Source: a virus. Taken from it: a stretch of DNA of 64,000 nucleotides. Every line of letters starts with the position of its first letter. Positions within the stretch are counted from its first letter, which is position 1. This document shows, piece by piece, positions 31,644-51,145 of the stretch. The translations under genes and the position numbers were made by a program. The notes below the pieces were generated by a model. It saw only the letters and a program-made list of their open reading frames with translations, made no database searches and was not told the DNA's origin. Where the stretch lies: the IMG/VR virus record IMGVR_UViG_3300025141_000021; one strand, 5' to 3'.

Positions 31644-33482
31644 TTACACCAAATCGGTAACAATAACCAATCCGTACATATCAGGACGGACCATCTTCTT
31701 GGCGTATCTAGTCATCACGCCCTTGCGGGGCACGAAGTCTTCAACACCGAAAATGGTGGGAGTGACCTGTAGTGGCACATATGGTGAGTACACGTAACCG
31801 CTCTCTAAGAAGCTGTTACCTCTACGTCCAACCAAAACCACATTACGCGGGAAGTAGGGGTTAACCCAGACATCCCACTTCTTACTCAGACTACCCACAT
31901 TGACCGCTCCAACGGTACCCTTGTTGTCATCACCGGTTATGTTTGCACGGAAACCCGCGGTGAACTCAAGAATATTAGCGACTTCAGGTCCCATGACCAG
32001 GAAGTTCGCGCCGCCTCGCAGCGTCTTGCGGTGGATCTGGGCAGAAATGTCGTTGATGGTTTCAACGAGAGTTTCATACCACTCACTAACCGTACCAGTG
32101 AAGTCGGGAGTTGCCGTAGCCGCTCCAACCTCTCTACCAGTCTTCCGATAAACGAATTTACCAGCATGACGGCTCCAGTAGTACGTACCAGCACTTGCCA
32201 GCTTGACGAGATCCTCTAGGATCTCTTGGTCAATCTCTAGAGCAATCTGCTCAGAAAGAATACTAGTAAGCTCAACCTCTGCATCGAGATTGTGATAAGC
32301 ATTCAAGTCTTGACCAAGCTCTGGGCTCCACTTAGCCTTAAGCTTCTTCGTCATCGCAGTGACAGACACGCTGTCAACCTTGATGTCGATCTCGGGAATC
32401 TGTTGATTAGTCTCAAGACCCCAAGTATCCTCGCCAACAACCGCTCCTAGAGCAGCATTCGAGCCGGCAGCAGGAGTTCCACTAAAGGGATCCATAACCG
32501 GGAACGAAGCCCCTGAAAGGTTGTTACCGGCAGCGGCCGGAGTGCAAAGCGAAGACGAAAGCTGCGCTAGCGTCTCACTACCACTAGCGGCAAGAACGAA
32601 TAACAGCCGGGTGCTATCGTTAGGATCGCGACGAGTTAGCCGTCGAACCTGAACACCAACACCTGTGCCTAGGCCTTTGTGGACCGAGCCAACAGCGTGG
32701 GCGCGACCTATGTCATCACCCGTAGTGCCTAGCTTGATGCCAACGAGGTTCTCAACGTTCAGCGGCTTGCCGCTGACCCCCTCGAAATCGCTAGCAACAG
32801 TCGAAATGACAGCACAGTTAGTACCGGAAAGATCCGGGTCATACTGAATAAGTCTATCCCCCAAGCTTGCGAGCGTTGCGTGGGCTGCACCAAGGTACGC
32901 ACCAGCGTGACCCCAAGCGGTGCCACCACCAGCATCTGCGCCACCAGAACCAGTGACCACATATACATCAGTCTCGTTGTTCCAGTCAATGGTTACACTA
33001 GCAGTTGCATGTGAATAACCATTATTTAGGTTGTAGAAGCTCTTTTCGGCACCAAGGCCGGTGAGAGAGACACCACCTGTAATTTCCTGACCAACCCGGT
33101 TACCACCAAAGAGCGAATCTTGCTTATCAGCGCCCAATCGGCTATTGGTATGTTGGAAGTCCAGGAAGAAAATGAGACCACTAGGTAGACTCATGGGCTG
33201 AACGGATACAATCTCGTTAGCCACTAGCCCGCCGAATACACGACGAACAATGGGAAAAGCGACAGAAGCGAAACCTTCAACGTCGCCTGCGGCCATAGTA
33301 GAAGCCTCACGGAGAAGCTCTTTGGCCTGGTTTTCCAGAAGACGCGCCATGCTCTCGCGAGCCTGGTCATCACCGATACCTTCCAAAAGTCCAGTCTTTT
33401 CCCACTTGCTTAGTAGGGCGTTACCTTCTTTTGATAGATCACGATTAATGATGCCTTCTGTTAATTTTTCTAATACAGACAT
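31644..33482 (-). CDS. gp23: Major capsid protein (T4 gp23-like, 612 aa)
   Basis: FPIVRRVF, VSVQPMSLPSGLIFFL, KLKAKWSPELGQDLNAYHNLDAEVEL..ILSEQIALEIDQEI, YSPYVPL and GVMTRYA. Confidence 0.96.
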   Translation of the reverse strand: MSVLEKLTEGIINRDLSKEGNALLSKWEKTGLLEGIGDDQARESMARLLENQAKELLREASTMAAGDVEGFASVAFPIVRRVFGGLVANEIVSVQPMSLPSGLIFFLDFQHTNSRLGADKQDSLFGGNRVGQEITGGVSLTGLGAEKSFYNLNNGYSHATASVTIDWNNETDVYVVTGSGGADAGGGTAWGHAGAYLGAAHATLASLGDRLIQYDPDLSGTNCAVISTVASDFEGVSGKPLNVENLVGIKLGTTGDDIGRAHAVGSVHKGLGTGVGVQVRRLTRRDPNDSTRLLFVLAASGSETLAQLSSSLCTPAAAGNNLSGASFPVMDPFSGTPAAGSNAALGAVVGEDTWGLETNQQIPEIDIKVDSVSVTAMTKKLKAKWSPELGQDLNAYHNLDAEVELTSILSEQIALEIDQEILEDLVKLASAGTYYWSRHAGKFVYRKTGREVGAATATPDFTGTVSEWYETLVETINDISAQIHRKTLRGGANFLVMGPEVANILEFTAGFRANITGDDNKGTVGAVNVGSLSKKWDVWVNPYFPRNVVLVGRRGNSFLESGYVYSPYVPLQVTPTIFGVEDFVPRKGVMTRYAKKMVRPDMYGLVIVTDLV

Positions 33483-33510: not shown

Positions 33511-34629
33511 TTATTTAACAAGTCCCGCCAAAACCTTCATTCGGTTATAAGCAGGGTCTGCCTTGCCGGTATCAGAATTTCTACGGCCTGATACCATTAG
33601 TGAGGAACTCTTAGTTACAGCTTCGCTCAGTGATTTTGGTCTTCTTCTGGAAGAAGTAGATCCCACCGTGCTTTGAAGCGTTTCATAAATAACTTTCGCT
33701 TCCTCAATTGTTCCGGCCTTTGTAATAGCTTCGACAAGTCTATCCTTTTGTCGCTCATTCAAGGAGGTATTGGTCAAAATCCGGTTTGTATAAAGTAACC
33801 TCGCGTTAGAAAGGTTAACTTTATCTAGATGTTCTTTAAGTGACACAATTGTGTCTTTGTATTTTTTGTTATTCTCGGAAACCTTTTGTAAATCAGTCTC
33901 CAATTTTGCAATTTGCTCAGCCAATTCATTATCTTCTGCTTCCTTTTCCTCAGCAGCGTCTTCTGCAATTGCTGCAACATCGCGTTGATAATTCAATTCA
34001 GTTTCAGATTTCTCAAGCCAACCAGACGAAGCTGGCTCCATGTCAATAGAAAGATCCTCGGCTAATTTATTTAAAAGCTCTGCCAACTCATCTTTCTCTA
34101 ATTCAGCCTCTTCATCTTCTTGTACGATCTCGGCGTCCTCAGAGGAGTTTTCTTCCGCATCTTCGTCTTCGCGAATACGATCAGCGTGCATGCGATTCTT
34201 TCCGACATCTCGATCTTCGTTGCCAGATCTCGCAGCTGCGCCGCCTTCCTGCAGGGCCATTTCCCCCGCAATTGCTTCTCTGTCCATCATATCGCTTGGC
34301 ATAGCTTCTCCTTTTTCTGCATCGATTTGTGCAGCTAGTGCATCAAAATCAATTTCAATTTCTTCGTCTTCATCCGGACAGGGGCAAAGATCTTCGCCTT
34401 CCATGGCCGCATCTGGTAACTGGTCGACAAACTCGCTTGGGGGCTCCACTTCTTCGCCGCCAACATCAGCAAATCCTTCTAATTCATCTTCTGGCTGCTC
34501 TAAAAGTGATTGAACTACTTCTTTGATTTCATTGGAGTATTTTTCAATAACCAAATTTTCCGCATTCTTTAATGCGGCTTCTTTAAGAGCGGTAGCATCA
34601 ATAATGGCTTGCTCAAGCATATGCGACAT
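33511..34629 (-). CDS. Prohead scaffolding/core protein (gp22-like)
   Basis: Very acidic N-terminal half, C-terminal coiled coil (NARLLYTNRIL...), RMKVLAGL end; directly upstream of the MCP gene. Confidence 0.8.
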   Translation of the reverse strand: MSHMLEQAIIDATALKEAALKNAENLVIEKYSNEIKEVVQSLLEQPEDELEGFADVGGEEVEPPSEFVDQLPDAAMEGEDLCPCPDEDEEIEIDFDALAAQIDAEKGEAMPSDMMDREAIAGEMALQEGGAAARSGNEDRDVGKNRMHADRIREDEDAEENSSEDAEIVQEDEEAELEKDELAELLNKLAEDLSIDMEPASSGWLEKSETELNYQRDVAAIAEDAAEEKEAEDNELAEQIAKLETDLQKVSENNKKYKDTIVSLKEHLDKVNLSNARLLYTNRILTNTSLNERQKDRLVEAITKAGTIEEAKVIYETLQSTVGSTSSRRRPKSLSEAVTKSSSLMVSGRRNSDTGKADPAYNRMKVLAGLVK

Positions 34630-34722: not shown

Positions 34723-37700
34723 TTATTCTTCCTGCGCCTCGTATGCGGTAAACAGGACCCATTGGGCGCCGTCGCATATTAAGCCAACTGTTGCACCGCC
34801 ATGCGTCATCGTATAACCTAAGCCATGATTGACCAGTTCGTCATTATCACCATCAATAACAAGGTGGCTATCATTATTAGACATATTCGCAAAATGATAC
34901 ATCCTACCAGTCTTCCCAGAAACCGCAGGAAGTGATGCCGTGGCTGCGCTGGTGCCTTCAAATATGATGAAGAAGTGGTTATCGCCCACATCGATATCCA
35001 CGCTTGTTGCGGTAACTGCAGCTGACTGGGCTTTTTGAGCGTTAAACGTTCCGTGTACAAGGGAGGAGCCAGTAACAGTCATTCCAGCTTGAATTGCTAG
35101 AGTTTGAGCCTGAACGGCGGCGGATCCTGTAACATTTTGTTGCACTGTTAAACTTTGAGCAGAAAGTCCTCCAGCACCAGACATAGCAGTTGAAATGCTG
35201 AATGAGTCCGCGGTAATAGTGCCAGAAACGTTTAGCGCACCAGATACAAAAGCTGCTTTTTGAACTAGTAGGGTTCCGGTCAAATCTATACTGCTGTCGC
35301 AAACTATGCCGCCAACAACAGATAAACCGGCTGCGCCGCTGATTTGGCCATCTGTTGTTAAAGTTTGAGCAGAAAGTCCTCCAGCACCAGACATAGCAGT
35401 TAGAGATAATAATGATGTGGCTGTAGCAGCACCGGAAACATTTAGAGCACCAGATACAAAAGCTGCCTTTTGAACCAACAAGGTACCCGTCATATCTATA
35501 TTGTTTGAAATAATCAATCCACCAACGAAAATGCCCCCGACCGAAGAAGACAGGGTGCTGCCGTCAAATAGAAGATTTGCTTCACCATTAATGGTGTCGC
35601 TATCAACTGATGTTAAGATCCTATTATTTCCGTTATTATTATAATTTGCTACCGCTCCGCCGCCTCCTCCTCCAGCAAGCAAGTTTGTTGCTGAGCCGCC
35701 ATCGGTCTTGAAATACAGGACATCGCTAGTAACATATATAGCGCCATAGCCACTAGCCGGCGTTGCTGCTGCGCCTCCATCTGCTAACAATATCCCTTTA
35801 GAAGTAAGAGCGCCGGATACATTTAATGCTCCAGATACAAAGCCCGCCTTTTGGACCAATAAAGTTCCTGACATATCAATGTTACTGTCGCCAACTATGC
35901 CACCAACAACAGATAAACCGGCTGAGCCACTGATTTGTCCATCTGTTGTTAAAGTTTGAGCAGAAGCTCCTCCAGCGCCAGACATAGCAGTTAAAGAGAT
36001 TAATGATGTGACTGTGGCAGCACCGGTAACGTTTAGAGCGCCAGAAACAAAAGCTGCGCCTGAAAGTTCAAGATCGCCACTGAAACTAGCTGGGCCGGCA
36101 ATCATTAAACCAGCAGAGCTAGAAATAGTGCCAACAACAGATAATGGAGCGGTGGGTGTGTTCGTGCGGATCCCGACACGACCAGAGCCCGTTGCAAAAA
36201 GAACTGAGCCAAGGGCTTTTCCGTCGACTTCAAATAACTTTTCGCCGGCTAGTGATTCAGTTGAAGATGAAACGTGGAGGAGAGACTGAGGGGAGGCGGT
36301 GCCAATGCCGACGTAGCCGGAATCTAAAATGGTTAAATCTGTCGAGCCGTCGTCATTCTTAAAAGTGTATCCAGTATAGCCGGCCTGATTTCCTTGAAAA
36401 TCTAAAAATCCAGTGCTACTATTTCGTCCAATTTTGTAGTAGTTGATGGAGTTGCCGAGGCGCAGTTGATCGGAGGAAGCACCGCCGACAATGTCTAGGG
36501 TGGTGGCCGGGGTGTCGGTGCCTATACCGACACGGCCGGAACCGGTTACAAAGAGAACCGTTCCGTTCGTCGCGCCGTCGACCGACAGAAGCGCTTCATC
36601 CCCGGAAGAGGAAACGTGCAAGCTTGCGCTTGGGAACTGAGTACCAATGCCGACATTTCCGCCGGGTTGATCAAAGTAGTAGCCAATACCCCCCATGGTG
36701 CCAGAAATCTGGAAGTCCGTGTAGCCGTGTTGAAGGCTAATCTGATTATAACCACCGAAAGCCCCGACCGACATGTAGTAATCCGTATCGGCAACAGTAG
36801 TACCGAACCTGATCGACGGGCCATTGGCGGGCAGAAGCTCTATGACTTTTGAATCTGATTCTACAAGAAGACTGGCATCACTTATCGACCCAGAAACATG
36901 GAACTTTCTCGCAGGACTCTCGGTACCGATGCCAACTTTATCATTGCCGGCATCAACAAAAAGCATATTAGGGTTGCCGTCTGATTCTACACGGAAATCG
37001 CAGTCAACACTATCATCATTGACTACAACTTCACATGCCGTGCTATTTGCCACATCCTCGCCACCAACTGAAAGAAGGTTCTTTAGCCCCGCAGTACCAG
37101 CGGTTCCTCCCGCTAGCGCCTTAATGGTGAGTTTTCCGCCCTCATCATTATTTGTGATATCAGATGCAATTGCCTCTATTTTCACATAATCTGTTTCAGC
37201 ATCTCCACTGTCTTTACCTCTGAAGGTGACAGTACCAAGAGACATATCGTCTGCTTCGGTGTCGCTATCAGTTCTGTGGAAAGCCAATATTGGGGGTTTG
37301 TCGGTAGCAACATTGGATGTTCGAAGTTCAAGTAACGGATTTGTGTCTGCTGCCGTTGTTTCAATCAAAACAGTTTGGCCAATGCTGCTAGCTATGGCGT
37401 CATTCACAACATAGAGTGCGCGTGTGCCGACGGCTTCGGAAGCATCGTTTGTGATTTGCATCAGTGTTCTGCTGCTAGTATCGTCCGAGTTTGAAGTTAT
37501 ATTAAATGCTTTGCCTGATGTTAGCGAGTCGGCCTGTATACCAGCGATGGTAGAGGCTGCGGCGGCTGTGTTGATAACCAAGCCATTCGAAGTAACATTA
37601 CCTGACACATTTAGAGCACCGGATATAAAACCTGCCTTTTGGACAAGCAAGGTGCCTGATATATCGGCATTCTTTGAAACATTTATCCCAGTCTCGTTAG

Positions 37701-38922
37701 AAGTAAATCCAGAGCCACTAATTTTATTAGTTACTGAGAAAGCTCCGTGGTGAACGCTGGAACCAGTGATGGTCATGCCAGCTTGAATTGCTAAAGTTTG
37801 CGCTTGTACAGCCGCGGCTCCTGTAACATTTTGCTGTACTGTTAGGCTTTGGCCAGATATTCCACCAGCACCAGACATAGCGGTTGTAGATATCAATGCT
37901 GTAGCTGTTGCGGCGCCGGTTACATTTAGTGCACCAGATATAAATAATGATTCACCAATTATAACATCAGCAGCCATGCTTGCGGCGCCGGTTACATTAA
38001 GTGCGCCTGAAAGTAAAAGACTGCCATCAGAAAGGATGGAGCCAGTGCTATTAACTGCTTTGGCTGTTACTGCGCCGGTTACATTTAGAGCACCAGAAAC
38101 AAAAGCTGACTCACCGATTATAACATCAGCAGCCAAGCTTGCGGCGCCGGTTACATTTAGTGCGCCTGAAAGGAGAAGTCCACCATAAATCTGTGCTGAG
38201 CCGCTAGTGTGAACATTACCAGTAACGTTAAGTGCTTTGTTCAAAGACATAGCACTTTCAGCATGGCCCCAAACAAACCGCGCTTCATCACCCGGAGGGC
38301 CAGAGGAAGTTCCGCCAATTTGCATGCCACCACCAGCCGCGTTGGCAGAAGTAGTGCCAGAAGCGACGAGAATCAATTTGTCTACAACCTCTAAAGTTGT
38401 TTCAGTAACTGTTACGCTGTTAATATTGGTAACGTCAAGTTCTGTGAAATATCCATGAGTTGCGGTAATAGTTCCCGTTACATTTAATGCGCCAGAAATG
38501 AAAGCCGATTCATTAACAATGAGATCAGAAGCCAGGGTAGTGGTTCCAGTTACATTTAGCGCACCAGAAACAAGAAGGCTTCCATCGGAACGGAATGCGC
38601 CAGTGGTGGTAACTCCCTTGGAGGTTATGGCGCCAGTTACATTTAGCGCGCCAGAAACAAAGACAGATTTATCAACTTCTAAAGTGCCAGAAGTCGCTAC
38701 ATTAGAACTAAAATCAATGAGACCGCCGACATTTAAGCCATACGAGCCAGACAGTTTGCCTTTAAGCGCAAGTACAGTGCCAGAACCGCCAGAAGAGCCT
38801 GTCGTTAGGGTAAAGTCGGAACTACCTGAAAATACATCGTAAGTTCTATATTGTACTGATTTATGAGGCCCGCCGGCTGAACTGGTTCCGTTCGAATCTA
38901 TGTATGCCCAGCTTAATGTCAT
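34723..38922 (-). CDS. 1399-aa Gly/Ser/Ala-rich fibre protein with internal repeats
   Basis: 12 copies of SGALNV(T/S)G, several VGIGT..P...L(H/D)V fibre repeats and duplicated blocks. Confidence 0.8.
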   Translation of the reverse strand: MTLSWAYIDSNGTSSAGGPHKSVQYRTYDVFSGSSDFTLTTGSSGGSGTVLALKGKLSGSYGLNVGGLIDFSSNVATSGTLEVDKSVFVSGALNVTGAITSKGVTTTGAFRSDGSLLVSGALNVTGTTTLASDLIVNESAFISGALNVTGTITATHGYFTELDVTNINSVTVTETTLEVVDKLILVASGTTSANAAGGGMQIGGTSSGPPGDEARFVWGHAESAMSLNKALNVTGNVHTSGSAQIYGGLLLSGALNVTGAASLAADVIIGESAFVSGALNVTGAVTAKAVNSTGSILSDGSLLLSGALNVTGAASMAADVIIGESLFISGALNVTGAATATALISTTAMSGAGGISGQSLTVQQNVTGAAAVQAQTLAIQAGMTITGSSVHHGAFSVTNKISGSGFTSNETGINVSKNADISGTLLVQKAGFISGALNVSGNVTSNGLVINTAAAASTIAGIQADSLTSGKAFNITSNSDDTSSRTLMQITNDASEAVGTRALYVVNDAIASSIGQTVLIETTAADTNPLLELRTSNVATDKPPILAFHRTDSDTEADDMSLGTVTFRGKDSGDAETDYVKIEAIASDITNNDEGGKLTIKALAGGTAGTAGLKNLLSVGGEDVANSTACEVVVNDDSVDCDFRVESDGNPNMLFVDAGNDKVGIGTESPARKFHVSGSISDASLLVESDSKVIELLPANGPSIRFGTTVADTDYYMSVGAFGGYNQISLQHGYTDFQISGTMGGIGYYFDQPGGNVGIGTQFPSASLHVSSSGDEALLSVDGATNGTVLFVTGSGRVGIGTDTPATTLDIVGGASSDQLRLGNSINYYKIGRNSSTGFLDFQGNQAGYTGYTFKNDDGSTDLTILDSGYVGIGTASPQSLLHVSSSTESLAGEKLFEVDGKALGSVLFATGSGRVGIRTNTPTAPLSVVGTISSSAGLMIAGPASFSGDLELSGAAFVSGALNVTGAATVTSLISLTAMSGAGGASAQTLTTDGQISGSAGLSVVGGIVGDSNIDMSGTLLVQKAGFVSGALNVSGALTSKGILLADGGAAATPASGYGAIYVTSDVLYFKTDGGSATNLLAGGGGGGAVANYNNNGNNRILTSVDSDTINGEANLLFDGSTLSSSVGGIFVGGLIISNNIDMTGTLLVQKAAFVSGALNVSGAATATSLLSLTAMSGAGGLSAQTLTTDGQISGAAGLSVVGGIVCDSSIDLTGTLLVQKAAFVSGALNVSGTITADSFSISTAMSGAGGLSAQSLTVQQNVTGSAAVQAQTLAIQAGMTVTGSSLVHGTFNAQKAQSAAVTATSVDIDVGDNHFFIIFEGTSAATASLPAVSGKTGRMYHFANMSNNDSHLVIDGDNDELVNHGLGYTMTHGGATVGLICDGAQWVLFTAYEAQEE

Positions 38923-39889: not shown

Positions 39890-40093
39890 CTATTGTTGTT
39901 TCTCCTGATATCGACGAGAATTCTCTTTTCTTCTTTTTCTCATTCTTTTTCTTTTAACAGAAGGCTTTTCATAACGCATATGCTCTTTCGCAGCTTCTAG
40001 TATTCGCTTCTTTTTAACCTTTTTCGTGAATCTCCTGATTAATTTCTCTGGGTGTTCTCCGCGGTGCGCTCGTACAACAATATTAACAGCCAT
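39890..40093 (-). CDS. rpsU: Ribosomal protein bS21 (67 aa; start reassigned to MAVNIVV)
   Basis: VNIVVR...EHPEKLIRRFTKKVKKKRIL.....HMRYEKPSVKRKR matches bS21; ATG 1 nt after the upstream TAG. Confidence 0.88.
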   Translation of the reverse strand: MAVNIVVRAHRGEHPEKLIRRFTKKVKKKRILEAAKEHMRYEKPSVKRKRMRKRRKENSRRYQEKQQ

Positions 40094-40094
40094 T

Positions 40095-40526
40095 CTACGC
40101 CAATTCTTTCCACTTCCCACCAGAAATATTCATAATCCCACTTATGTCTACTCCTGAATCTCCCGGATCAATACCAGTCAATGGGCCGCCAGGGGCTGCA
40201 GCCTGACCAGGCCGGCCGGCGCCGGGTGTAGGAGTTGTGTTTTCAAATAAATCAACTCCATTAAAAGCATCTTTGCCAATTACATCCAGCATCTTTCGCC
40301 TTGTCTCTGTTAACTTTTGTTTTATTTCTCTCTTTTCTTTCGTTCTTTCAACTGGTTTGTTTGTAGCTACAGTAGGGGCCGCAACTTGTTCAACAAGTGG
40401 AGCCGCTCCTATTCCTTTAACCACTTCTGCAATAATTCCAGACAATGCACCTTCTTCGAAAATTACTTCTTTGATGCATTCTTTAATCAGTGGTTTTAAA
40501 ACTTTCTTAAGTTCTTCACGCTTCAT
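40095..40526 (-). CDS. Hypothetical 143-aa protein with leader-like N-terminus
   Basis: MKREELKKVLKPLIKECIKEVIFEE; coupled between the protease and bS21 genes. Confidence 0.75.
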   Translation of the reverse strand: MKREELKKVLKPLIKECIKEVIFEEGALSGIIAEVVKGIGAAPLVEQVAAPTVATNKPVERTKEKREIKQKLTETRRKMLDVIGKDAFNGVDLFENTTPTPGAGRPGQAAAPGGPLTGIDPGDSGVDISGIMNISGGKWKELA

Positions 40527-40528
40527 AA

Positions 40529-41134
40529 TTACCTTTCAGTATTTCTCAAAATATCATTTAACGCACGGTTAATACGATCTGCCTTTGTAAAAATATTTGG
40601 CTCTTTGCTTTCTTTCATCATAAACGCACCAGTCGTTGAAGGCTCAGAAACAAAGTCGAAACATATTAATTGAAAATCATCTTCAACTATTGTTTGCCCA
40701 TTACTTTCTTGTACAGAACCCATCCCGCGAGAGGAGATACCCAACTTAACGCCGGAACTAACAAGCTCTTTTAAAACTTTTCCAGAAGGCGTATTAAGAA
40801 CCTGAACTTTTCCCATTACATCTTTGCCGTCCCACCAAACTTCAGTAACAAGGTGTGACGCATTCTTAAGATTGATGACAGAGTCTTCGGGATGGTCTAA
40901 CTCTCCCAAAGCTCTGCGTTCTTTAACAAGTTTATCATAATTTTGCATTTCCCTCATAAGAATTTTATGAGGATATATCCGACCATTTCCATTTTGCACA
41001 TCAGATCGTTGCATAATTCCGGAAAGAATCGTACCACCATTAGCGACAAATGCCTTCTCGTGCTCGGTTAGCAAGTCTTGACATACTCCACCTTCACAAA
41101 GTTCATAATATTCAGTTAATAATAACTTGGGCAT
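40529..41134 (-). CDS. gp21: Prohead protease (T4 gp21-like)
   Basis: NGNGRIYP, LGELDHP, SHLVT, TPSGK, LGISSRGMGS and FDFVSEPST.GA. Confidence 0.95.
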   Translation of the reverse strand: MPKLLLTEYYELCEGGVCQDLLTEHEKAFVANGGTILSGIMQRSDVQNGNGRIYPHKILMREMQNYDKLVKERRALGELDHPEDSVINLKNASHLVTEVWWDGKDVMGKVQVLNTPSGKVLKELVSSGVKLGISSRGMGSVQESNGQTIVEDDFQLICFDFVSEPSTTGAFMMKESKEPNIFTKADRINRALNDILRNTER

Positions 41135-41136
41135 AG

Positions 41137-41187
41137 TCAAGAACCTTTACAACAATGCCGTACTGGCTGTAACATCCATTTTTTCAT
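41137..41187 (-). CDS. 16-aa micro-ORF MKKWMLQPVRHCCKGS
   Basis: Late motif, then GGAGG RBS, then ATG; its TGA is 2 nt before the protease ATG. Confidence 0.5.
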   Translation of the reverse strand: MKKWMLQPVRHCCKGS

Positions 41188-42099: not shown

Positions 42100-42923
42100 T
42101 AGTTTTTGATCTCATTGGCTAAACTTTGAATTTTTAGCACCTTTTTAATTATATCGCGAGAAACTATTTGGCTCTTAAAGCCTTCTAGAAGATCGATTAC
42201 GCTTTTGGTTTTTTTAATCATCTCGGGATCATCTTTAATTTCTTCGTTTTTAATTGACTCGGAGATACAATCTTTTAATCGGCCAATCTCCTCATTTAGA
42301 TAAACTTTAAGGCCAATGCCGTTATCATTAAACGACATAATATACTCTTTGAGTAGTTTGTTTTGCTCGCTAAGTAAGCCCTTATAGGCCTGATTAAACT
42401 TATCTACAAACGTGTTATAAACGATGTTGTCAACTGGCTCAAGACCTTCTCCACCGGGCGCCTTTTTCGCTATCATTTTTTTAATCATAGATTCTTCTAA
42501 AACAACACGTTTCCTAACCGTGGTTCTGTTGCTAAAAATCTGCGATATCGTTGCTAAATTTTTATAGTTCGGGATGAAATTGGAGAACACTGATGGGGAT
42601 AGCTTTTTATTGATATCGTTTATAATTGCAGTCTGCTCATCAAATAAGCCTTCTTCTGAAAAACCCTCGCCAAAGCGAGCACATTTAACTTCATGTAAAA
42701 GTTTTTCCGCAATATATTGATTCACCTCCCTTGTCTCATGCAGAATATTATATAACTCCATTTCTCGCGCAAGCATGCTGCCTTTCTTAAAATGAGTTCT
42801 AACCATTTCTAGTATGCTGTCTTTTCGTTTGCTGTTCTTTTCAACTACAGCTTTCGTCAATTCCCTGATTAACGTTTCATATAAAAACAGACTATTTCTC
42901 TTCTTATTATGTTTCATCTTCAT
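42099..42923 (-). CDS. Hypothetical 274-aa helical protein (possible prohead core component)
   Basis: Overlaps the portal stop; many L/I-x-E sites. Confidence 0.7.
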   Translation of the reverse strand: MKMKHNKKRNSLFLYETLIRELTKAVVEKNSKRKDSILEMVRTHFKKGSMLAREMELYNILHETREVNQYIAEKLLHEVKCARFGEGFSEEGLFDEQTAIINDINKKLSPSVFSNFIPNYKNLATISQIFSNRTTVRKRVVLEESMIKKMIAKKAPGGEGLEPVDNIVYNTFVDKFNQAYKGLLSEQNKLLKEYIMSFNDNGIGLKVYLNEEIGRLKDCISESIKNEEIKDDPEMIKKTKSVIDLLEGFKSQIVSRDIIKKVLKIQSLANEIKN

Positions 42924-44838
42924 TCTCGCGTGACTCCAAACCTGAAATTAATTGTTTAACCTCGCGCTTAACTTCAAACAAATTTTTCTCTTCAGTATAA
43001 GTAGGCTCCAAGTTCTCATTTATCCCATACATTGCACTTCTTAAGCCCATCAAATCTGAAAAGCCTTTAAAAGTATTTCTTCTTGTTGCTCTAGCCGTTT
43101 CATCCGAATATTGGCCTCTAGAGCTTCGCGTTCTAGCTCCTTGGTCTCTCTTATCGCTTTTGACGGGATGATATATCTTACCTTTTGCGCCGGGAGTTAA
43201 ATATCCATCTTCGCGTTTTCCTGGTGCAGCTAGAAGAGTTTCTTCTTCGCCGGTGTCGGCGGCCTCAAGTTCACCACCTTCTTCGCCACCTAAGCCTTCA
43301 AGGCCCTCTTCGCCACCCAAACCTTCAAGGCCCTCTTCGTCGCCTAAGCCTTCAAGACCCCCAAGGCCACCTGCTGCTTCTGCAGCGGCGGCTTCGGCAA
43401 TTGCCTCAAGCGAAGCTTCAAACTTCTTGTCATAGAACATTTCTCGTTGATTACGAAGGAACTCTTCATCAGACATATTAAACATCTTGTTGGCAATCCA
43501 GCGCTTAGAAAAGAAGCCTTCCGTTGCCGAAGCTGCAGTATCAAACTTGGTTTTCCAATGTTCAAGTTCTTGAAGTTCTGCAATCTTAGACGGGTTATTT
43601 AACGATAATTTAAAGTTTACTAAATCGTCCCCCTTAAACCCTAGAGTGTATAGATGAACAATACCAATCTTCTCAAGCTCTGTTAACATTGCTCTTTGTA
43701 ATCTTTGAATTGTCCTAGCAAAACGGATATCTTTTTGAGCTAAAGTTGTTTTGTCCTCGTCACTGTCTTCACCTCTAGAAAGATAAGCCTGTGGAACCTT
43801 AAGCGCTGAAAACAGTTTGTCTCTCAGATATTTAACATCATCAATGTCGCCAGTGTATGAGCCGCCAGTCAGGTTTTCGATCTTTGTATTTGAAGTGCCG
43901 CGGACAGGCAAAAAATAATCTTCTTCAATTGATAAAGGATTATAACGAAGATCTACGCGGCCAGTTGATGTATCAACAATTTGATGTCGCTTCATTGATG
44001 AAATAACTTTTTGTATATATTGTTCAACATCTTGTGGAGCGATGTTGCCAACATCAATATAAAATACTCTTCTATCCGGGGCACGGACAATTCTATAGGC
44101 CATCATCGCGTCTTCTAGAAGTACAAGTTGTCTCCAAATACGACGAGCAGCATCAAGGGTCGACGTTCCATATGGTGCGAACTTATCATTGCCAAGAATT
44201 CTAAAATGTGCAACTTGCCAATTCTCAAATGTCATCCCAGCCGAGTTCCACTGAAACTGAACATAATTTGGATTTGTCTTGTCTTCGCCTTCAAGCCTCT
44301 CAAGCTCATTCGTTGGCAGGCCCAGTACGTTGGTTACACCAAGTTCTTCATCCAAATCCATATAAAGGAAGAAGTCGCCAAATTTGCACATTGTTCGACA
44401 CCAACCAAACAGGTTGAACTCAATGTTCATGATGTTATAATAGAGTGACTGAAGTACTGCTTTAATTTCTTCGTTCGGGCATGCGATTGTTAGTAGGGGC
44501 TGCAGTTGACTTGAGGTTGTCATTTCATCGGCATATATATCAAGTGCCGATGCAATTTCTGGCATGTATTCCATCTGATCAAAGTCCACGTATCTTTCGA
44601 TACGGCTTTGATTCATCATTACTGGATGGCTTAAATTACCAAATGGATCGTAAGCTGCTCGTTTAAACTGTTGACCGCTCGCAGATCTAAACCTGCTAGA
44701 GTGTTTGTCCATCTGCCATCGTTTTTCGCGACGGGCTTGCTCTGCTCGATAATTAACCAGGGGTCCAGAAAATAATCTGGTTAGTGATTTGAATAATGTG
44801 CTTCCTTGATTTCTTGGATTTCTTTTTTGATCAGCCAT
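42907..44838 (-). CDS. gp20: Portal protein (T4 gp20-like)
   Basis: EIASALDIYADE, LLEDAMMAYRIVRAP.RRVFYIDVGN, EEDYFLP and DVKYLRDKLFSALKVP. Confidence 0.95.
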   Translation of the reverse strand: MADQKRNPRNQGSTLFKSLTRLFSGPLVNYRAEQARREKRWQMDKHSSRFRSASGQQFKRAAYDPFGNLSHPVMMNQSRIERYVDFDQMEYMPEIASALDIYADEMTTSSQLQPLLTIACPNEEIKAVLQSLYYNIMNIEFNLFGWCRTMCKFGDFFLYMDLDEELGVTNVLGLPTNELERLEGEDKTNPNYVQFQWNSAGMTFENWQVAHFRILGNDKFAPYGTSTLDAARRIWRQLVLLEDAMMAYRIVRAPDRRVFYIDVGNIAPQDVEQYIQKVISSMKRHQIVDTSTGRVDLRYNPLSIEEDYFLPVRGTSNTKIENLTGGSYTGDIDDVKYLRDKLFSALKVPQAYLSRGEDSDEDKTTLAQKDIRFARTIQRLQRAMLTELEKIGIVHLYTLGFKGDDLVNFKLSLNNPSKIAELQELEHWKTKFDTAASATEGFFSKRWIANKMFNMSDEEFLRNQREMFYDKKFEASLEAIAEAAAAEAAGGLGGLEGLGDEEGLEGLGGEEGLEGLGGEEGGELEAADTGEEETLLAAPGKREDGYLTPGAKGKIYHPVKSDKRDQGARTRSSRGQYSDETARATRRNTFKGFSDLMGLRSAMYGINENLEPTYTEEKNLFEVKREVKQLISGLESRENEDET

Positions 44839-44840
44839 TT

Positions 44841-46427
44841 TTAACCTTTATAAAGCCATGAGTGTTGTTTGGCTTCTTCCGTTTCTTCGTTTATTCTATC
44901 ATTATCTAATGATTTTTTATAGCCATGCATGCCAGGAATAATAGTTTGTATTCTTGTATCCGTTTTTACCATACAATTTAAAAACGCCTTGTTGTATTCT
45001 AAATCTCGTTGATTCGTTGTTAATGCTGTGTCTTTAACCCAACAGCTTATTGCAAAAGCCATGACGAGATCGTCATTATATCCTCGCATTGCCTGGGGTT
45101 TGCTGTTATTCCATATAAATGTTTTCAATTCATTTGCCATCCTTGAAGAAGGTGTTTTAATTAGTTTATTTCTTATAAACTCTTCCATTTTTGCGATTAT
45201 CAGCGGGCGCGTTTTAAGCGAAGTTGTAAAGCCGGCTATCGATCCCTTTCTAGTCTCAGCCTCAAGTTGATCAACATACTCATGTGTCGATTTAACTGAA
45301 TGATAAACATTTGGATATTCAGCGCCAATAATCTTTTCCAAGACCGCATAACCAATATTGTTATTTTCAATAACAATCATACAATTTCCATATTCTTTTC
45401 CGACCTCTTGCAAAAAATTGGCAAAAATATCTGTATTTGGTTTTCCTTGATATTCTGCAACAACATTCAAATCTTCTAACTTTATCACATGAAAAACAGA
45501 ATAGTCTTGTCCATCTCCCCTGGCCACATCCGCAGTTAATAAATAAGAATTCTCTGGCCTAAATTCTTCCCAAATCCAAAAGTTTCTATCAAAGCCGGTT
45601 CTATATTTTGGTTCTTTAATGTTGGACATCATCCACTCTAAATCATCAGGATGGACCACTGTCTCGCCAGAAGTGTTAAAGTTACATTCAAGTTCTTGCG
45701 CAATTTCTCTGCGTGACATATTGCGCGTCTCTTTAGCGAACCAAGGTTGGTCGCGATCTGGGTGTACTTGCCATGGCAATATTGTAGGATAAAAGTCATT
45801 CTTTTGCTCTTCAGAATCAATATATGTTTGATGAAACCAATTGCCAACACCGTTTGGGGTTGATAGTGCAATGCATCGACCACCTGTAGAAAGCGTAGGA
45901 TAAAGACCGGTCCATAGTTCTTCTAGGCCCTCAACGTGAGCAGCCTCATCAATCACTAATAAAGATAGTGCCTCTGAACGACCAGCATCCCCGGAAGTTG
46001 ATGATGCCTTAATCTGTGAGCCGTTAGCTAGTTCGAATGATGTTCTATTATCAATTGTAATATCTGCTATTTTTATCCACGGCGGAAGGTTTTTAATTAT
46101 GGATTTAACTTTCTTAACTAAGTTTGCCGCTGTGCTGAATTTTGTAGCAATAACAAGGACGTTCTTATCGCGATGAAACAATAGCATCCAAACGATATAT
46201 GCGGCAACAGTGGTTGATATTCCCAGCTGTCGAGCTTTTAATATAACGTTAAACCGATGATCGTTAAAATCGTTTATAAGTTGTTCTTGAAAATCATATG
46301 TTTTGAAAGGTATCAAGCCACGCATTGGGTGGGAAATTTTAGCATAATTGTTTATAAAGTAGGACGGGTCTTTGCCTGCTTTTATAACCTCTCTAACAAT
46401 TTCTTTTTTGGTGAGTTGATACGACAT
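44841..46427 (-). CDS. gp17: Terminase large subunit (gp17-like)
   Basis: ILKARQLGIST (Walker A), LVIDEAAH (Walker B), LSTPNG, TADVARGDG.DYS, IENNNIG and NDDLVMA. Confidence 0.96.
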   Translation of the reverse strand: MSYQLTKKEIVREVIKAGKDPSYFINNYAKISHPMRGLIPFKTYDFQEQLINDFNDHRFNVILKARQLGISTTVAAYIVWMLLFHRDKNVLVIATKFSTAANLVKKVKSIIKNLPPWIKIADITIDNRTSFELANGSQIKASSTSGDAGRSEALSLLVIDEAAHVEGLEELWTGLYPTLSTGGRCIALSTPNGVGNWFHQTYIDSEEQKNDFYPTILPWQVHPDRDQPWFAKETRNMSRREIAQELECNFNTSGETVVHPDDLEWMMSNIKEPKYRTGFDRNFWIWEEFRPENSYLLTADVARGDGQDYSVFHVIKLEDLNVVAEYQGKPNTDIFANFLQEVGKEYGNCMIVIENNNIGYAVLEKIIGAEYPNVYHSVKSTHEYVDQLEAETRKGSIAGFTTSLKTRPLIIAKMEEFIRNKLIKTPSSRMANELKTFIWNNSKPQAMRGYNDDLVMAFAISCWVKDTALTTNQRDLEYNKAFLNCMVKTDTRIQTIIPGMHGYKKSLDNDRINEETEEAKQHSWLYKG

Positions 46428-46435
46428 ACATGGCC

Positions 46436-46726
46436 TTAGACGCTTTCTTCTCCTGGCGGAATCTCATCTGCATCTTCGTGACCATGTATAGCAGCAGTTT
46501 CCTCCTCTTTCATACGAGAGATAAGGCCTAGGGCAAATTCACGAAGATAGTCTTCAAGCCACATTGGCGGTGCCTCGCCGGCAACTGAAGCCTGTGCGCG
46601 GGCCAGCCCGGGGTCACCTGGTGGTCCTCCACCTTGTTCGCCCCCAATATCAAATTCTTCTAGCTTGGAGTGCTCTTTCACCTCTTCTTTAATAATTTCT
46701 TTTAGTCTTTGTCGGGTAAGTTTCAT
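46436..46726 (-). CDS. Small leader-bearing protein (MKLTRQRLKEIIKEE...)
   Basis: Shared N-terminal motif; coupled ORF. Confidence 0.75.
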   Translation of the reverse strand: MKLTRQRLKEIIKEEVKEHSKLEEFDIGGEQGGGPPGDPGLARAQASVAGEAPPMWLEDYLREFALGLISRMKEEETAAIHGHEDADEIPPGEESV

Positions 46727-46727
46727 T

Positions 46728-47288
46728 TTATTGCTTCCCCTTGCGTGTCACATTTTTTGATTTCATGGCGCCAGGATATGTGTCTTTGCCAATTGCTAAC
46801 CACTTTTTGATTGCATCATCAACGTTATCTTCTGAGCCGGGAGCAATTTCTTCAACGTTAGACATGCCGCCAACGTTGTACCACTGAATTGCTCTTACGT
46901 CGGTTCTGCGACGAGATATTGGCTCGACACGAATATCGGGTTCTCCATCGGCAGTTATACTTAAAGCATTGCCAGTAACATTTTTATATTCTTTTCTCAT
47001 ATATTTGGCAATATCTTTTAATCTTCCAATAATCTCGTTTTCAAATCCATTTTCATGAACCTCTTTTAAGTTGGCCTGAGAATGATAAAGTATACGAAGA
47101 CGAGGACCAGCCATGCTGACCGTAAATCCGTCCATTGTTCTAGAATCTAAAATTGGATCGCCCTGTTCTCTCTTAAGGCCGGCCTTTCGGGCTTTGCCAT
47201 CAGCCATATATCGTTCATCATGTGATCCATCATAGGCGTTGGCTGCAGCCTGTGATATTCCTTTTAGTATTTCGTCTGGTGTCGGCAT
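46728..47288 (-). CDS. Hypothetical 186-aa protein
   Basis: Tightly packed minus-strand ORF. Confidence 0.7.
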   Translation of the reverse strand: MPTPDEILKGISQAAANAYDGSHDERYMADGKARKAGLKREQGDPILDSRTMDGFTVSMAGPRLRILYHSQANLKEVHENGFENEIIGRLKDIAKYMRKEYKNVTGNALSITADGEPDIRVEPISRRRTDVRAIQWYNVGGMSNVEEIAPGSEDNVDDAIKKWLAIGKDTYPGAMKSKNVTRKGKQ

Positions 47289-47614
47289 TATCGGTTAACT
47301 CCTAATTCAATATCCATGGCTTCTTCTGCAGCGCGGCGTACCTCGGCTGGATCCATCCCTTCTTTTTCTACATAGTCTTGCATAAGATCGCCCAACACAT
47401 AAACCAGATTTTCGTAGGTGCTGTAGTGGTCTTCGGGCATGCTCATTTCTCCGGTCTGGGCGTCGACCCATGGACCCGGGTGCGGCGTAGGTCCGGGTCT
47501 GGTTCCTTTTTCTTCTTCAAGCCCTCCGCCGCGAGGCGCGGTCTCTTCCAAGAAATATCTCGGATCAATCCGTCGTTTGCGTTTTGTTGGTTTTGACCAT
47601 CTGTGAGCTGCCAT
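47288..47614 (-). CDS. Hypothetical 108-aa protein
   Basis: Basic N-terminus, DPRYFLEE, then acidic body. Confidence 0.65.
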   Translation of the reverse strand: MAAHRWSKPTKRKRRIDPRYFLEETAPRGGGLEEEKGTRPGPTPHPGPWVDAQTGEMSMPEDHYSTYENLVYVLGDLMQDYVEKEGMDPAEVRRAAEEAMDIELGVNR

Positions 47615-47617
47615 AAT

Positions 47618-47998
47618 TTATTCTCCTTGTGGGCGCCATCCGGTTGTCCATCGTTCTTCCCGAAACTCAACCCACTGAACGTAACATTTATGACAACAAT
47701 CGTATCTGTTCATATAAATGTCGTCTTGTGAGTTAAAAGAATAAACTTTGCACACAGGACAAGTACGGTTTGACTCTTTATTAAGTAGCTTTTTAGAAAC
47801 TAAAAATCCGTTTATTTCTACTTTTTCCTTTTTCTCGCTTAGCTTCTGTTCTTTTAATGAAGCGCGCTTTAATTGTTCATTATATTGTTTCTCTTTTTCT
47901 TCGCTCCAGCCGGCTTTTGGATTTTGTACAGCTTCTTTCCCATATTTCTGTGCAATTGCTTTTTCAAGATTTGCAATGTAGTTTTGATCTTTTTTCAT
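47618..47998 (-). CDS. Hypothetical zinc-finger protein (126 aa)
   Basis: CPVC...DCCHKC cysteine cluster. Confidence 0.7.
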   Translation of the reverse strand: MKKDQNYIANLEKAIAQKYGKEAVQNPKAGWSEEKEKQYNEQLKRASLKEQKLSEKKEKVEINGFLVSKKLLNKESNRTCPVCKVYSFNSQDDIYMNRYDCCHKCYVQWVEFREERWTTGWRPQGE

Positions 47999-48012
47999 TT
48001 TTCATTTTAAAG

Positions 48013-48486
48013 TTACTTGCCTACTTGTACGGCCGCGGCAAAAGTCCCAAGAGCCAAGGCCATTCCCAAAGCCATGCCTCCTGCAAAAATCCATGGAGCG
48101 GCTGCCCTTTGTTTGCTTGTTTTCATTACAAGATCGTGAAGCCTCTGATTCTCTGCTGCTTTAAGTGCCATCATTGATTCGTGTCGTTCTTTCCAGCTTT
48201 CAATCGTAATATCTTTTGTATCTAATTCTAACTTAAAACGAGTTTGCTGTAATTCAAGCTCATAATTCACACGAAGATCACATTCAAGATCTTCAAATTT
48301 TTTATCGGTAATTATTTTGGCAGCCGCATTCGGAGAAAGAAGTACTCCTGCAAATGGGGCAATATCCCCTAGTTCAAGATTTATTATATCTATATTTGCC
48401 GCTTCTTCTGTTTCTTCTTCAGCAAAGGCGGCGAGGGGAAAAGCTAAATTAAAGATTAATATCAGTGATAAAAATTTTTTAACCAT
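48013..48486 (-). CDS. Exported coiled-coil protein with C-terminal membrane anchor (spanin-like partner; start MVKKFL)
   Basis: Signal peptide (..FPLAAFA-EE), coiled coil and C-terminal hydrophobic helix; overlaps the upstream TM gene. Confidence 0.55.
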   Translation of the reverse strand: MVKKFLSLILIFNLAFPLAAFAEEETEEAANIDIINLELGDIAPFAGVLLSPNAAAKIITDKKFEDLECDLRVNYELELQQTRFKLELDTKDITIESWKERHESMMALKAAENQRLHDLVMKTSKQRAAAPWIFAGGMALGMALALGTFAAAVQVGK

Positions 48487-48901
48487 GTTCGAAACCATAC
48501 AATCTGGCTAGCTCTCTAGAAAGCCTCTCTGGGTCATTATAACCTTGCTCGACCAATTTTTTAAGCTCTCTCTTTTTCGCTGAACTTAATTTCTTTTCTT
48601 CTTCTGCCAGCTTGCCTTCAACCTTTTCAAGGTTTTTATTGTATTCTTTTAAAATGGTATCCCTTTTTTCAATCTCATTTTGATGAATTTTATCAACTAT
48701 CTCTATTTGATTTTCATAATCTTTTTTAGAATTTTCTATATAATCTAATAATGCGGTAAGAAATACTTGTTTTCTCGTTAAAGCCCACAATAAAAGCCCA
48801 ACAGCTATTAATAGTGTTACAAATGGTATCTGCCAATGTGATTTAAGCCAGAGCCATGTTTTCTTTAATTTATTTTTTAATACCAAAAAACCGATAGTCA
48901 T
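48479..48901 (-). CDS. N-terminal TM + coiled-coil protein (i-spanin/Rz-like)
   Basis: Single TM segment (IPFVTLLIAVGLLLWAL) followed by a long charged helix. Confidence 0.55.
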   Translation of the reverse strand: MTIGFLVLKNKLKKTWLWLKSHWQIPFVTLLIAVGLLLWALTRKQVFLTALLDYIENSKKDYENQIEIVDKIHQNEIEKRDTILKEYNKNLEKVEGKLAEEEKKLSSAKKRELKKLVEQGYNDPERLSRELARLYGFEHG

Positions 48902-48903
48902 TA

Positions 48904-49737
48904 CTAATCTGCTTTCTTTTCAGGAGCAGCGGGCCTCTCAATATTAAATGGCGATTCTTTTGTTTTGCCCGGGCGCGCCATTCGTCCCATAAATCTTTGA
49001 GCGATATCAATACTTGTGGGGTCAACCCCTGTAACTGCGGAAGCTAAAAAGTCCAAACTTCTATCTAGATTATCAATACCTACCAACAATTTGCTAAGCA
49101 CTTTTTCAAGATTTTGAAATTGGTTTTGTGATGCCTGGGACATGCCGTGATCATCTCCATTGAATTCGGCTAAAGTATTTTCAAGCTCTTCTCTGATGAT
49201 TTCTTCTAATCCTAAATCAGTGTTACCCCGAGGCGCTGCGGCGGGTTCGCCCTCATCTTCTATCTGAAATTCAACGCCAAATTTATCTTTAAGGCCTTTT
49301 TTAATGATATCGAGCGCTTCACCTTGTTGAATTGATGCTAATAGTTCGTGGGCTGTTTTAAAATCTCCGGTGCCGGCCGCATATATTATAGCCTGCAATA
49401 AGCCAGTCCTAGTTTCTTCAACCAATGGCCCAAGCTCTTCTTTTATTAAACCAAAAAGATTTTCTAAACGGGTCCGAGCTTCTTGTAATCCATGCATAGA
49501 TCTGTCTCGCCCGCCCGGGCGCAGCTGACTAAACATGGCAACCAACTCGTTAGCCTGTTGATTAATCATTTGAATTCCAACAAAAAGCTGATTTAACATT
49601 TCAGCAGCCCCTTTTGGATCTATCTGAATTTTTTGAAAAGCAAGAGTGCCTGCCCCCTGAGACTCGGGATCGGCTTCATCTAGCTTTTCTAGTTCTTCTT
49701 TAACGATTTCTTTTAGTCTAGATCTGGCAATTTTCAT
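48904..49737 (-). CDS. 277-aa protein with three leader-like motifs
   Basis: MKIARSRLKEIVKEEL; RLENLFGLIKEEL; LEEIIREEL. Confidence 0.75.
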   Translation of the reverse strand: MKIARSRLKEIVKEELEKLDEADPESQGAGTLAFQKIQIDPKGAAEMLNQLFVGIQMINQQANELVAMFSQLRPGGRDRSMHGLQEARTRLENLFGLIKEELGPLVEETRTGLLQAIIYAAGTGDFKTAHELLASIQQGEALDIIKKGLKDKFGVEFQIEDEGEPAAAPRGNTDLGLEEIIREELENTLAEFNGDDHGMSQASQNQFQNLEKVLSKLLVGIDNLDRSLDFLASAVTGVDPTSIDIAQRFMGRMARPGKTKESPFNIERPAAPEKKAD

Positions 49738-50018
49738 TATTTTTCCGCCAATGAAGCATCAGCCTTTTCCAGCAACCCACCTAGATCATTTTTATATGCA
49801 ATACCTTCTTCAGTCACCGGATTCCAAGTATCATATAAAGTTTGCAATTCGTGAAATGATACCGATAAATCTCTAACTTTCTCCAAGCCAACTGAAGGAG
49901 CTTCCCTTTCCCAGCCCGGGCCTGTCGGATCTGGAAGATTTTCTAGTTCCCCGCGGGGAAGCCATTCTCTTAGCTCTTTCCTTACTAATTCTTTTAGTGT
50001 TTCTTTCGTAAGCTTCAT
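49737..50018 (-). CDS. Small leader-bearing protein (MKLTKETLKELVRKEL)
   Basis: Shared N-terminal motif. Confidence 0.75.
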   Translation of the reverse strand: MKLTKETLKELVRKELREWLPRGELENLPDPTGPGWEREAPSVGLEKVRDLSVSFHELQTLYDTWNPVTEEGIAYKNDLGGLLEKADASLAEK

Positions 50019-50242
50019 CGTCTGCCTTCTCTACCAAAATGCGTCTGCAGTATTGTCATTAATTTGCCTAGTTTACCCTCAAGATCTGTTATGCGAAGAC
50101 TGAGTTTATCATATAGTTCCATAACAAGCGGATCTGGCGACTGGAAGGTTCCTCTCTGACTGGGATCATAATGCCCAGCCAGGCCTCCTTCTTTAATTTC
50201 TTCTCTGATAATACCTTCTAATTCTGATTTAGTAATTTTCAC
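50015..50242 (-). CDS. Small leader-bearing protein (MKITKSELEGIIREEI)
   Basis: Shared N-terminal motif. Confidence 0.75.
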   Translation of the reverse strand: MKITKSELEGIIREEIKEGGLAGHYDPSQRGTFQSPDPLVMELYDKLSLRITDLEGKLGKLMTILQTHFGREGRR

Positions 50243-50517
50243 TGGTCTAGTCCCTCCCGACTATAAATTATAACATCTCGTTCCGACCCATCTACGTATT
50301 CAGCCGCCTGTCTTAAAACATCTGAAATTTTCATATCTTGAAATATTGGCGGATGTTCTGGGAGAAGGTCTCTTTCTATAAATCTGACAATTCCACTATA
50401 GAACATATCCGCAACAGACCGAACATGTCTCGACAATGCATCCGGCGCAACTTCTGGGGCCTCTTCCTCCATTACTTCTTTAATAACTTTCTTTAAGTCC
50501 ACTCTTGTAAGCTTCAT
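50239..50517 (-). CDS. Small leader-bearing protein (MKLTRVDLKKVIKEVMEE)
   Basis: Shared N-terminal motif. Confidence 0.75.
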   Translation of the reverse strand: MKLTRVDLKKVIKEVMEEEAPEVAPDALSRHVRSVADMFYSGIVRFIERDLLPEHPPIFQDMKISDVLRQAAEYVDGSERDVIIYSREGLDQ

Positions 50518-50933
50518 CTTTTAGGGCCTCCGTATTTTTTTTTATCTTGGTTCAATAAACCAATCATATATCTAGCAACGTCTTTAGCAATGAAGACAAC
50601 GGCTTCAGGAACATAACCCTCATCCTCAACTATTGGCTCGGTTACTCTAGATATTGCCTTTGCCAATTTATATTCTAATGTAGCATATGGCTTAGTAGGA
50701 AATTTCTCATATTCTTTTTTATATATCTCCGCCTCTTGAAGGATTATTTCCTTTAATTCAAATTTTGTAATTTTGTTTGTTTTGTCGATAGATTCATTTG
50801 CATGAGTATGCAAAGCTGCAAGATAATCTTTAACTGGACCATCCGTGCATCCTACTTTTTTATCGTTTTCTTTTTTATACACGCAAGTTTTTCCCTTATC
50901 TTTGCCGGCGCCTTTTCTTGAATAATAGGGCAT
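50514..50933 (-). CDS. 139-aa protein with internal leader-like motif (KITKFELKEIILQE)
   Basis: Basic/Cys-containing N-terminal module followed by the motif. Confidence 0.7.
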   Translation of the reverse strand: MPYYSRKGAGKDKGKTCVYKKENDKKVGCTDGPVKDYLAALHTHANESIDKTNKITKFELKEIILQEAEIYKKEYEKFPTKPYATLEYKLAKAISRVTEPIVEDEGYVPEAVVFIAKDVARYMIGLLNQDKKKYGGPKR

Positions 50934-51117: not shown

Positions 51118-51133
51118 AATAAACCTCTACTAT

Positions 51134-51142
51134 ATAAGTAGT
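51134..51142 (-). promoter_or_regulatory. Putative late promoter ACTACTTAT
   Basis: Intergenic motif upstream of the GAGG RBS; heads the holin/leader-protein/terminase run. Confidence 0.55.
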
Positions 51143-51145
51143 TGC

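Follow-up and report, generated by a model that had tools for sequence, protein, structure and literature searches.

The 64,000-nucleotide stretch of IMG/VR virus record IMGVR_UViG_3300025141_000021 analysed here (the window) comes from an uncultured marine myovirus of the T4 superfamily, with all genes on the minus strand. Between positions 46436 and 50933, it carries open reading frames (ORFs) whose products share a leader of 15 residues with the consensus MKITKSQLKQIIKEE, followed by L or I (the MKITK leader). The leader is a real N-terminal tag under selection at the peptide level. With moderate confidence, we interpret it as a propeptide of the T4 type, of a new sequence class, that would target proteins to the prohead core and then be cleaved off. 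Packaging, cleavage and the fate of the payload behind the leader are steps that we infer.

A conserved leader on unrelated proteins

An earlier note on this DNA had described the leader at the start of five ORFs, inside a sixth and as a variant at 40095-40526. All seven were found as described:

46436-46726, minus strand: leader ORF of 96 aa with an acidic, Gly/Pro-rich payload; leader MKLTRQRLKEIIKEEV, 31.7 bits
48904-49737, minus strand: leader ORF of 277 aa; N-terminal leader MKIARSRLKEIVKEEL
49737-50018, minus strand: leader ORF of 93 aa; leader MKLTKETLKELVRKEL, 26.0 bits; singleton cluster
50015-50242, minus strand: leader ORF of 75 aa, with a GTG start that overlaps the upstream stop; leader MKITKSELEGIIREEI, 30.6 bits
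50239-50517, minus strand: leader ORF of 92 aa; leader MKLTRVDLKKVIKEVM, 29.2 bits
50514-50933, minus strand: ORF of 139 aa with an internal leader, KITKFELKEIILQE, from residue 54, behind an N-terminal extension; 10.8 bits
40095-40526, minus strand: leader variant MKREELKKVLKPLIKECIKEV; N-terminus LKKVLKPLIKECIKEV

A profile was built from the five leaders and run over all six frames of the window and 80 related loci (877 kb). At a threshold of 12 bits, it matched 87 sites on the coding strand, 85 of them with an ATG or GTG start, whereas the opposite strand had no match. Inside the window, strong matches are confined to 46436-50933. Residues K2, L8, I12, E14 and E15 are each conserved to at least 90%, and conservation stops at about residue 16. 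Near-invariant positions are L8 (77/78), I11 (69/78), I12 (74/78) and E14 (76/78). In relatives aligned with the 139-aa ORF, the extension before the leader is shorter, and leader residue 1 is Met or Val (GTG).

Synonymous codons are free at the conserved residues: Thr4 is encoded by all four ACN codons, Leu8 by five codons, and Ile11 and Ile12 by ATT, ATC and ATA. Selection thus acts on the leader peptide. The coding sequence is A-rich and lies behind a Shine-Dalgarno site, as would suit an element at the nucleic-acid level, either a translation-initiation enhancer or a cassette-exchange recombination site, with the peptide as a by-product. We regard such an element as very improbable, since the codons vary at Thr4, Leu8, Ile11 and Ile12 while the residues are fixed, and since internal and C-terminal copies of the leader are conserved where no initiation occurs.

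The leader is widespread among marine viruses. Across 1.84 billion cluster representatives (50%-identity clusters), an exhaustive profile search returned 10,270 at E ≤ 0.001. As a DNA pattern, the exact consensus was matched by at least 120 IMG/VR stretches but by none of the genomes of 185,579 prokaryote species. Searching phage records with the consensus by tblastn gave one weak match, LR756508, a 484-kb uncultured phage with dozens of ORFs that carry a diverged leader (M-K/R-L-T/S-E-R/K-K-L-R-K/R-I-V-K/R-E-E). Several genes of Flavobacterium phage immuto also begin with a diverged leader, MKKSQLRQIIKE; genes of the MKKSQLRxIIKE type in this phage include immuto136C_190 and a 73-aa gene ahead of its protease. 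Within the literature library that was searched, no paper contained the leader motif strings.

Behind the leader, the proteins differ. By BLASTP, the 78 distinct leader proteins form 46 clusters, with four of the five window proteins as singletons. The claim of the earlier note that the sequences after the leader are unrelated held for the five window payloads, which show no BLASTP similarity to each other at E < 1e-3. Protein lengths range from 46 to 448 aa (payload median 124 aa). None of 76 leader proteins matched Pfam, and in PHROGs only few families were matched, all of unknown function. For the ten ORFs of the window cluster, Pfam and PHROGs gave nothing except a weak Rz-like spanin match for 48479-48901. 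The payload of 46436-46726, with an isoelectric point (pI) of 4.3, matches no other leader protein, and the whole protein groups only with one from related locus L076.

The earlier note had mentioned an oligomerisation helix common to one homologous family as an alternative. With a single family, the leader proteins would be old paralogues: descent or gene conversion would have preserved the N-terminus, while everything behind it diverged past recognition. The genes are clustered and in tandem, and payload families do exist, one with 11 members and another with 5. Retention of the codons for ENK-M in fused leader proteins (see below) would also fit duplication and recombination at cassette borders. 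However, when the seven largest clusters were compared pairwise by hhalign with the first 20 residues removed, the probability was at most 0.6%, and a single diverged family for all leader proteins was rejected on this result. The range of lengths, the 10,270 clusters at 50% identity and the sharp fall in conservation after residue 16, which is the mark of a portable tag, argue in the same direction. The synonymous differences in leader DNA rule out recent gene conversion. Overall, we consider common descent of the whole proteins improbable.

Likeness to the T4 capsid targeting sequence

In the T4 capsid targeting sequence (CTS) MKTYQEFIAE, residues 4 and 7 are the main determinants of targeting and residues 8 and 10 those of processing, and the gp21 protease cleaves after L/I-x-E (PMC9026906). 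The CTS stands on IPII and IPIII, internal proteins of T4 (Mullaney and Black 1996, reviewed in PMC9026906 and PMC3012670). Two exact copies of the CTS are present in the T4 genome. Like the leader, the CTS is an N-terminal tag that begins with MK and stands on unrelated proteins, and the carrier genes are variable accessory genes in both cases. L8, I11, I12 and E14 of the leader are spaced as Y4, F7, I8 and E10 of the CTS (hydrophobic, x, x, hydrophobic, hydrophobic, x, Glu), and these positions appear to be equivalent. Because of this shared layout of key residues, the leader is probably a second, undescribed version of the T4 signal. The two differ in the distance to the cut (14 residues in the leader, 10 in the CTS) and in the key residues, which are aliphatic (L, I, I) in the leader and aromatic in the CTS. 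Unlike the CTS, the leader is found on more than 10,000 protein clusters, is repeated as units within polyproteins and precedes mostly acidic payloads.

The window encodes the following proteins of a T4-type head module that bear on this comparison:

44841-46427, minus strand: TerL
42907-44838, minus strand: gp20-type portal
40529-41140, minus strand: gp21-type prohead serine protease (Peptidase_S77; PF03420, E = 8.7e-32; phrog_207, E = 2.1e-53)
40095-40526, minus strand: conserved protein of 143 aa, encoded immediately after the protease; leader-like N-terminus as given above
33511-34629, minus strand: acidic scaffold-like protein of 372 aa, directly upstream of the major capsid gene
31644-33482, minus strand: gp23-type major capsid protein (PF07068, E = 4.5e-69)

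Like T4, the leader phage thus encodes a gp21-type protease, and the leader ends in I-x-E. In the capsid protein, L-R-E|A aligns with the maturation site L-T-E|A of T4 gp23, and for this reason the window protease has probably retained the L/I-x-E specificity. We propose this S77 protease as the enzyme that would remove the leader. In the mechanism that we envisage, the leader would form an amphipathic helix through which the precursor would bind to the prohead core during its assembly, with L8 and I11 as the targeting positions. After closure of the shell, the protease would cut behind Glu14 at I12-x-E14 and thereby set the payload free within the head; copies at internal or C-terminal positions of fused proteins would be cut likewise. 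The scaffold-like protein, whose N- and C-terminal regions are conserved across 9 relatives and which matches no family in Pfam or PHROGs, is a candidate docking partner of the leader.

Such additional copies are frequent. Among the best 120 matches of a word-indexed search, 74 hold two to four leader copies, 50-250 residues apart. Met is kept in 56 of 85 internal copies, often after ENK, which is a ribosome-binding site read in frame. The other 29 have no Met and therefore cannot be start sites. In some loci, C-terminal copies are encoded just upstream of TerL. Internal and C-terminal copies fit a site that is recognised at any position, as gp21 sites are. In T4 Alt, too, a propeptide is found at the C-terminus (PMC9026906). 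The 277-aa window protein carries two further, degenerate internal copies (LENLFGLIKEEL and LGLEEIIREEL), both in an insert specific to the window; its C-terminal domain is common to the family of 11.

Metagenomic proteins of up to 997 aa consist of several modules with conserved leader units (P0007, P0008, P0014, P0046, P0127 and P0145). Since the in-frame ribosome-site codons for ENK-M are retained, these proteins suggest that neighbouring cassettes were fused through loss of stop codons.

The genes around the protease provide a further comparison. In T4, the core genes 67 and 68 precede gene 21, and gene 22 follows it. Among the related loci, 36 reach the protease, and nearly all variable genes in its two flanking slots carry either the MKITK leader or a second leader, ENW, which is described below. 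An acidic MKITK-type protein of 64-68 aa occupies the slot corresponding to genes 67 and 68 in L017, L044 and L046, and further MKITK-type proteins of 98 to 762 aa lie beside the protease in L019, L025, L029, L033, L050 and L075. ENW-type proteins are found in the flanking slots of L016, L034, L051, L057, L066, L076 and L078. Small leader proteins are encoded between portal and protease in L017, L044, L046, L029, L033 and L050. In the window, no leader gene lies upstream of the protease. Almost all of the 36 loci have the 143-aa gene adjacent to the protease, and the product of this gene is a probable prohead core protein.

The T4 prohead core proteins gp67, gp68 and gp22 are cut into fragments by gp21. 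They resemble the leader proteins in having multiple I-x-E sites within a single protein, and DLIKEEK of gp67 resembles QIIKEE of the leader. Homology between the leader proteins and gp67, gp68 or gp22 was not detectable (no Pfam or PHROG match). In the giant phages SPN3US and phiKZ, the prohead protease trims N-terminal propeptides of ejection proteins (PMC5694885, PMC7411985). The likeness to the leader system is that many head-internal proteins are processed by the prohead protease after Glu. The propeptides of these phages are long and are not known to share a short tag, and they belong to another phage lineage with another cleavage motif.

A second leader class, genomic context and late expression

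The window and its relatives contain a second leader, MKLLxENWxKFLxE, or more broadly MK(L)(L/I)xENWxK(F/Y)(L/I)xE. In the window, it heads two genes of the replication module, between helicase and exonuclease:

4564-5340, minus strand: ENW-headed gene
5337-6497, minus strand: ENW-headed gene

The ENW leader is also present in L012, L016, L033, L034, L048, L051, L055, L057, L066, L076 and L078. With W8, F/Y11, L/I12 and E14, it has the length and spacing of the MKITK leader, and the spacing is again that of the T4 CTS. Its aromatic core is like that of the CTS, whereas the MKITK leader is aliphatic. ENW and MKITK genes are intermingled in accessory clusters and share the protease-flanking slots. 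The carriers are larger proteins, some of them enzyme-like (HAD-like, nucleotidyltransferase). The earlier note had overlooked this class, as well as the polyproteins and the conserved non-leader genes of the cluster.

Late expression was considered through a conserved motif. In the window, ACTATTTA occurs seven times, always on the coding strand and intergenic before head, neck and tail genes:

24017, 25715, 31540, 34667, 39863, 41207 and 59268, minus strand: ACTATTTA sites

In the 80 related loci, 121 copies lie on the coding strand and 3 on the other strand, and ACTATTTA is probably the core of the late promoter of this clade. The T4 late promoter TATAAATA was not enriched, and scans for sigma-70 promoters and terminators stayed at chance level. 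The late motif that the earlier note had placed at 51134-51142 proved to be only a copy of ACTATTTA with one mismatch, a possible promoter in the gap at the head of the cluster:

51135-51142, minus strand: ACTACTTA, one-mismatch copy of ACTATTTA, in a 28-nt gap

A perfect palindrome, CTACTTATATAGTAG (51131-51145, minus strand), overlaps the promoter-like site; the gap precedes a gene for a 60-aa membrane protein.

Several observations weigh against a capsid-loading role. The leader matches the T4 CTS only in M1, K2 and the spacing of four residues, and the residue behind the cut (P1') would be Glu, compared to Ala at the known T4 gp22 and gp23 sites. T4 internal proteins are basic, whereas 49 of 77 payloads are acidic (median pI 5.4). 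ESM Atlas models are of low confidence, with a predicted local distance difference test (pLDDT) score of 0.57 for the 92-aa and 0.45 for the 277-aa protein. Leader ORFs are not enriched for ACTATTTA (10/80 within 300 nt, compared to 100/1061 controls). Two complete relatives have leader genes in accessory regions remote from the head module: in G002, the main leader cluster is next to small accessory genes, 120 kb away from TerL, and in L094, a leader polyprotein is encoded near Acb5 and SAM-lyase genes. Finally, the two tags could serve different ends, because ENW looks closer to the aromatic T4 CTS and stands on enzymes.

Some of these observations bear on another explanation, in which the leader is a docking or oligomerisation helix for a hub outside the capsid, such as a host target, a phage chaperone or an early-infection complex, and is not removed by the head protease. 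The accessory, early-looking location of leader genes in some relatives, the missing enrichment of the late motif and the acidic payloads of unknown fold would all agree with such a hub. The same is true of the ENW leader on enzymes of the replication module, which shows that a gene of this phage can have an N-terminal tag without being structural. On the other hand, leaders are found on nearly all variable genes in the two slots flanking the protease, the conserved I-x-E end fits the motif of this enzyme and the N-terminus of a conserved head-module protein is related to the leader. Internal copies that lack Met are also easier to reconcile with a processing site than with N-terminal docking. 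We therefore regard a non-capsid hub as unlikely, though it deserves more weight than common descent or a nucleic-acid element.

With regard to prohead-core targeting, the proposal of capsid targeting made in the earlier note is thus supported in part, by the tag itself, its spacing and I-x-E end, the S77 protease and the protease-adjacent genes in relatives. The note had expected a profile scan to reveal many unrelated late ORFs with highly variable payloads; the payloads are indeed unrelated and highly variable, but leader ORFs are not enriched for the putative late motif, and late expression is unsupported. Its further suggestion that the payloads are injected for anti-defence or host takeover is also unsupported: most payloads are acidic, their fold is unknown, no known domain was found in them, and both Atlas models are of low confidence. 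The nearest Atlas clusters to the 92-aa and 277-aa proteins comprise viral hypotheticals only. More tentatively still, the large clade of uncultured marine T4-like phages and, in diverged form, the 484-kb phage and immuto may share an undescribed 14-residue I-x-E capsid-loading code, which would exist beside the ENW code and also serve as a cleavable polyprotein linker.

Neighbouring genes and implications

Leader genes in 46436-50933 are interspersed with genes of a backbone common to 38-70 of the 80 relatives:

48013-48498 and 48479-48901, minus strand: overlapping spanin-like pair, with homologs in 38 and 17 of the 80 loci
47618-47998, minus strand: Cys-rich 126-aa protein (CPVC ... CCHKC), encoded upstream of TerL in 59/80 loci
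46728-47288, minus strand: conserved 186-aa gene, directly upstream of TerL in 47/74 loci

One protein of the spanin-like pair combines a signal peptide with a C-terminal membrane helix; its partner, the one with the weak Rz-like match, combines an N-terminal membrane helix with a coiled coil. The Cys-rich protein matched no family. In the window, the leader ORF 46436-46726 is inserted between the 186-aa gene and TerL. By its position, the 186-aa gene had been labelled as small terminase. This label was dropped, as the AlphaFold2 model (pLDDT 73) is alpha/beta, and the product shows only weak matches to tail-terminator proteins.

The head module contains three further features:

between portal and protease, minus strand: two conserved unknown genes and a membrane protein
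39890-40120, minus strand: basic ORF of 76 aa, likely a ribosomal protein S21 gene
34723-38922, minus strand: 1399-aa repeat protein with many SGALNVTG-type repeats

The 76-aa ORF follows the 143-aa gene, is conserved in most relatives and has the same position as the annotated ribosomal protein S21 (RpsU) in Microcystis phage Mel-JY01. The 1399-aa protein may be a head fibre or decoration protein, and proteins of different sizes are encoded in this region in relatives. Among cultured phages, the best TerL match reaches 44% only (Flavobacterium phage immuto and Microcystis phage Mel-JY01), and a search of phage records with the DNA of the 46436-50933 stretch gave no match. In IMG/VR, hundreds of marine relatives are found at about 70% identity.

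If the leader serves in capsid loading, more than 10,000 unannotated marine viral protein clusters would receive a first function, as proteins that are packed into the head and then trimmed. The packaged protein cargo of these abundant viruses would be readable from sequence alone, by a rule that predicts virion-internal proteins in metagenomes, and the leader would offer a new portable tag to load foreign proteins into phage heads. It would also mean that two tag classes run within one phage, that cargo can be delivered as cleavable polyproteins and that the principle of the T4 CTS is older and more flexible than its ten residues suggest.

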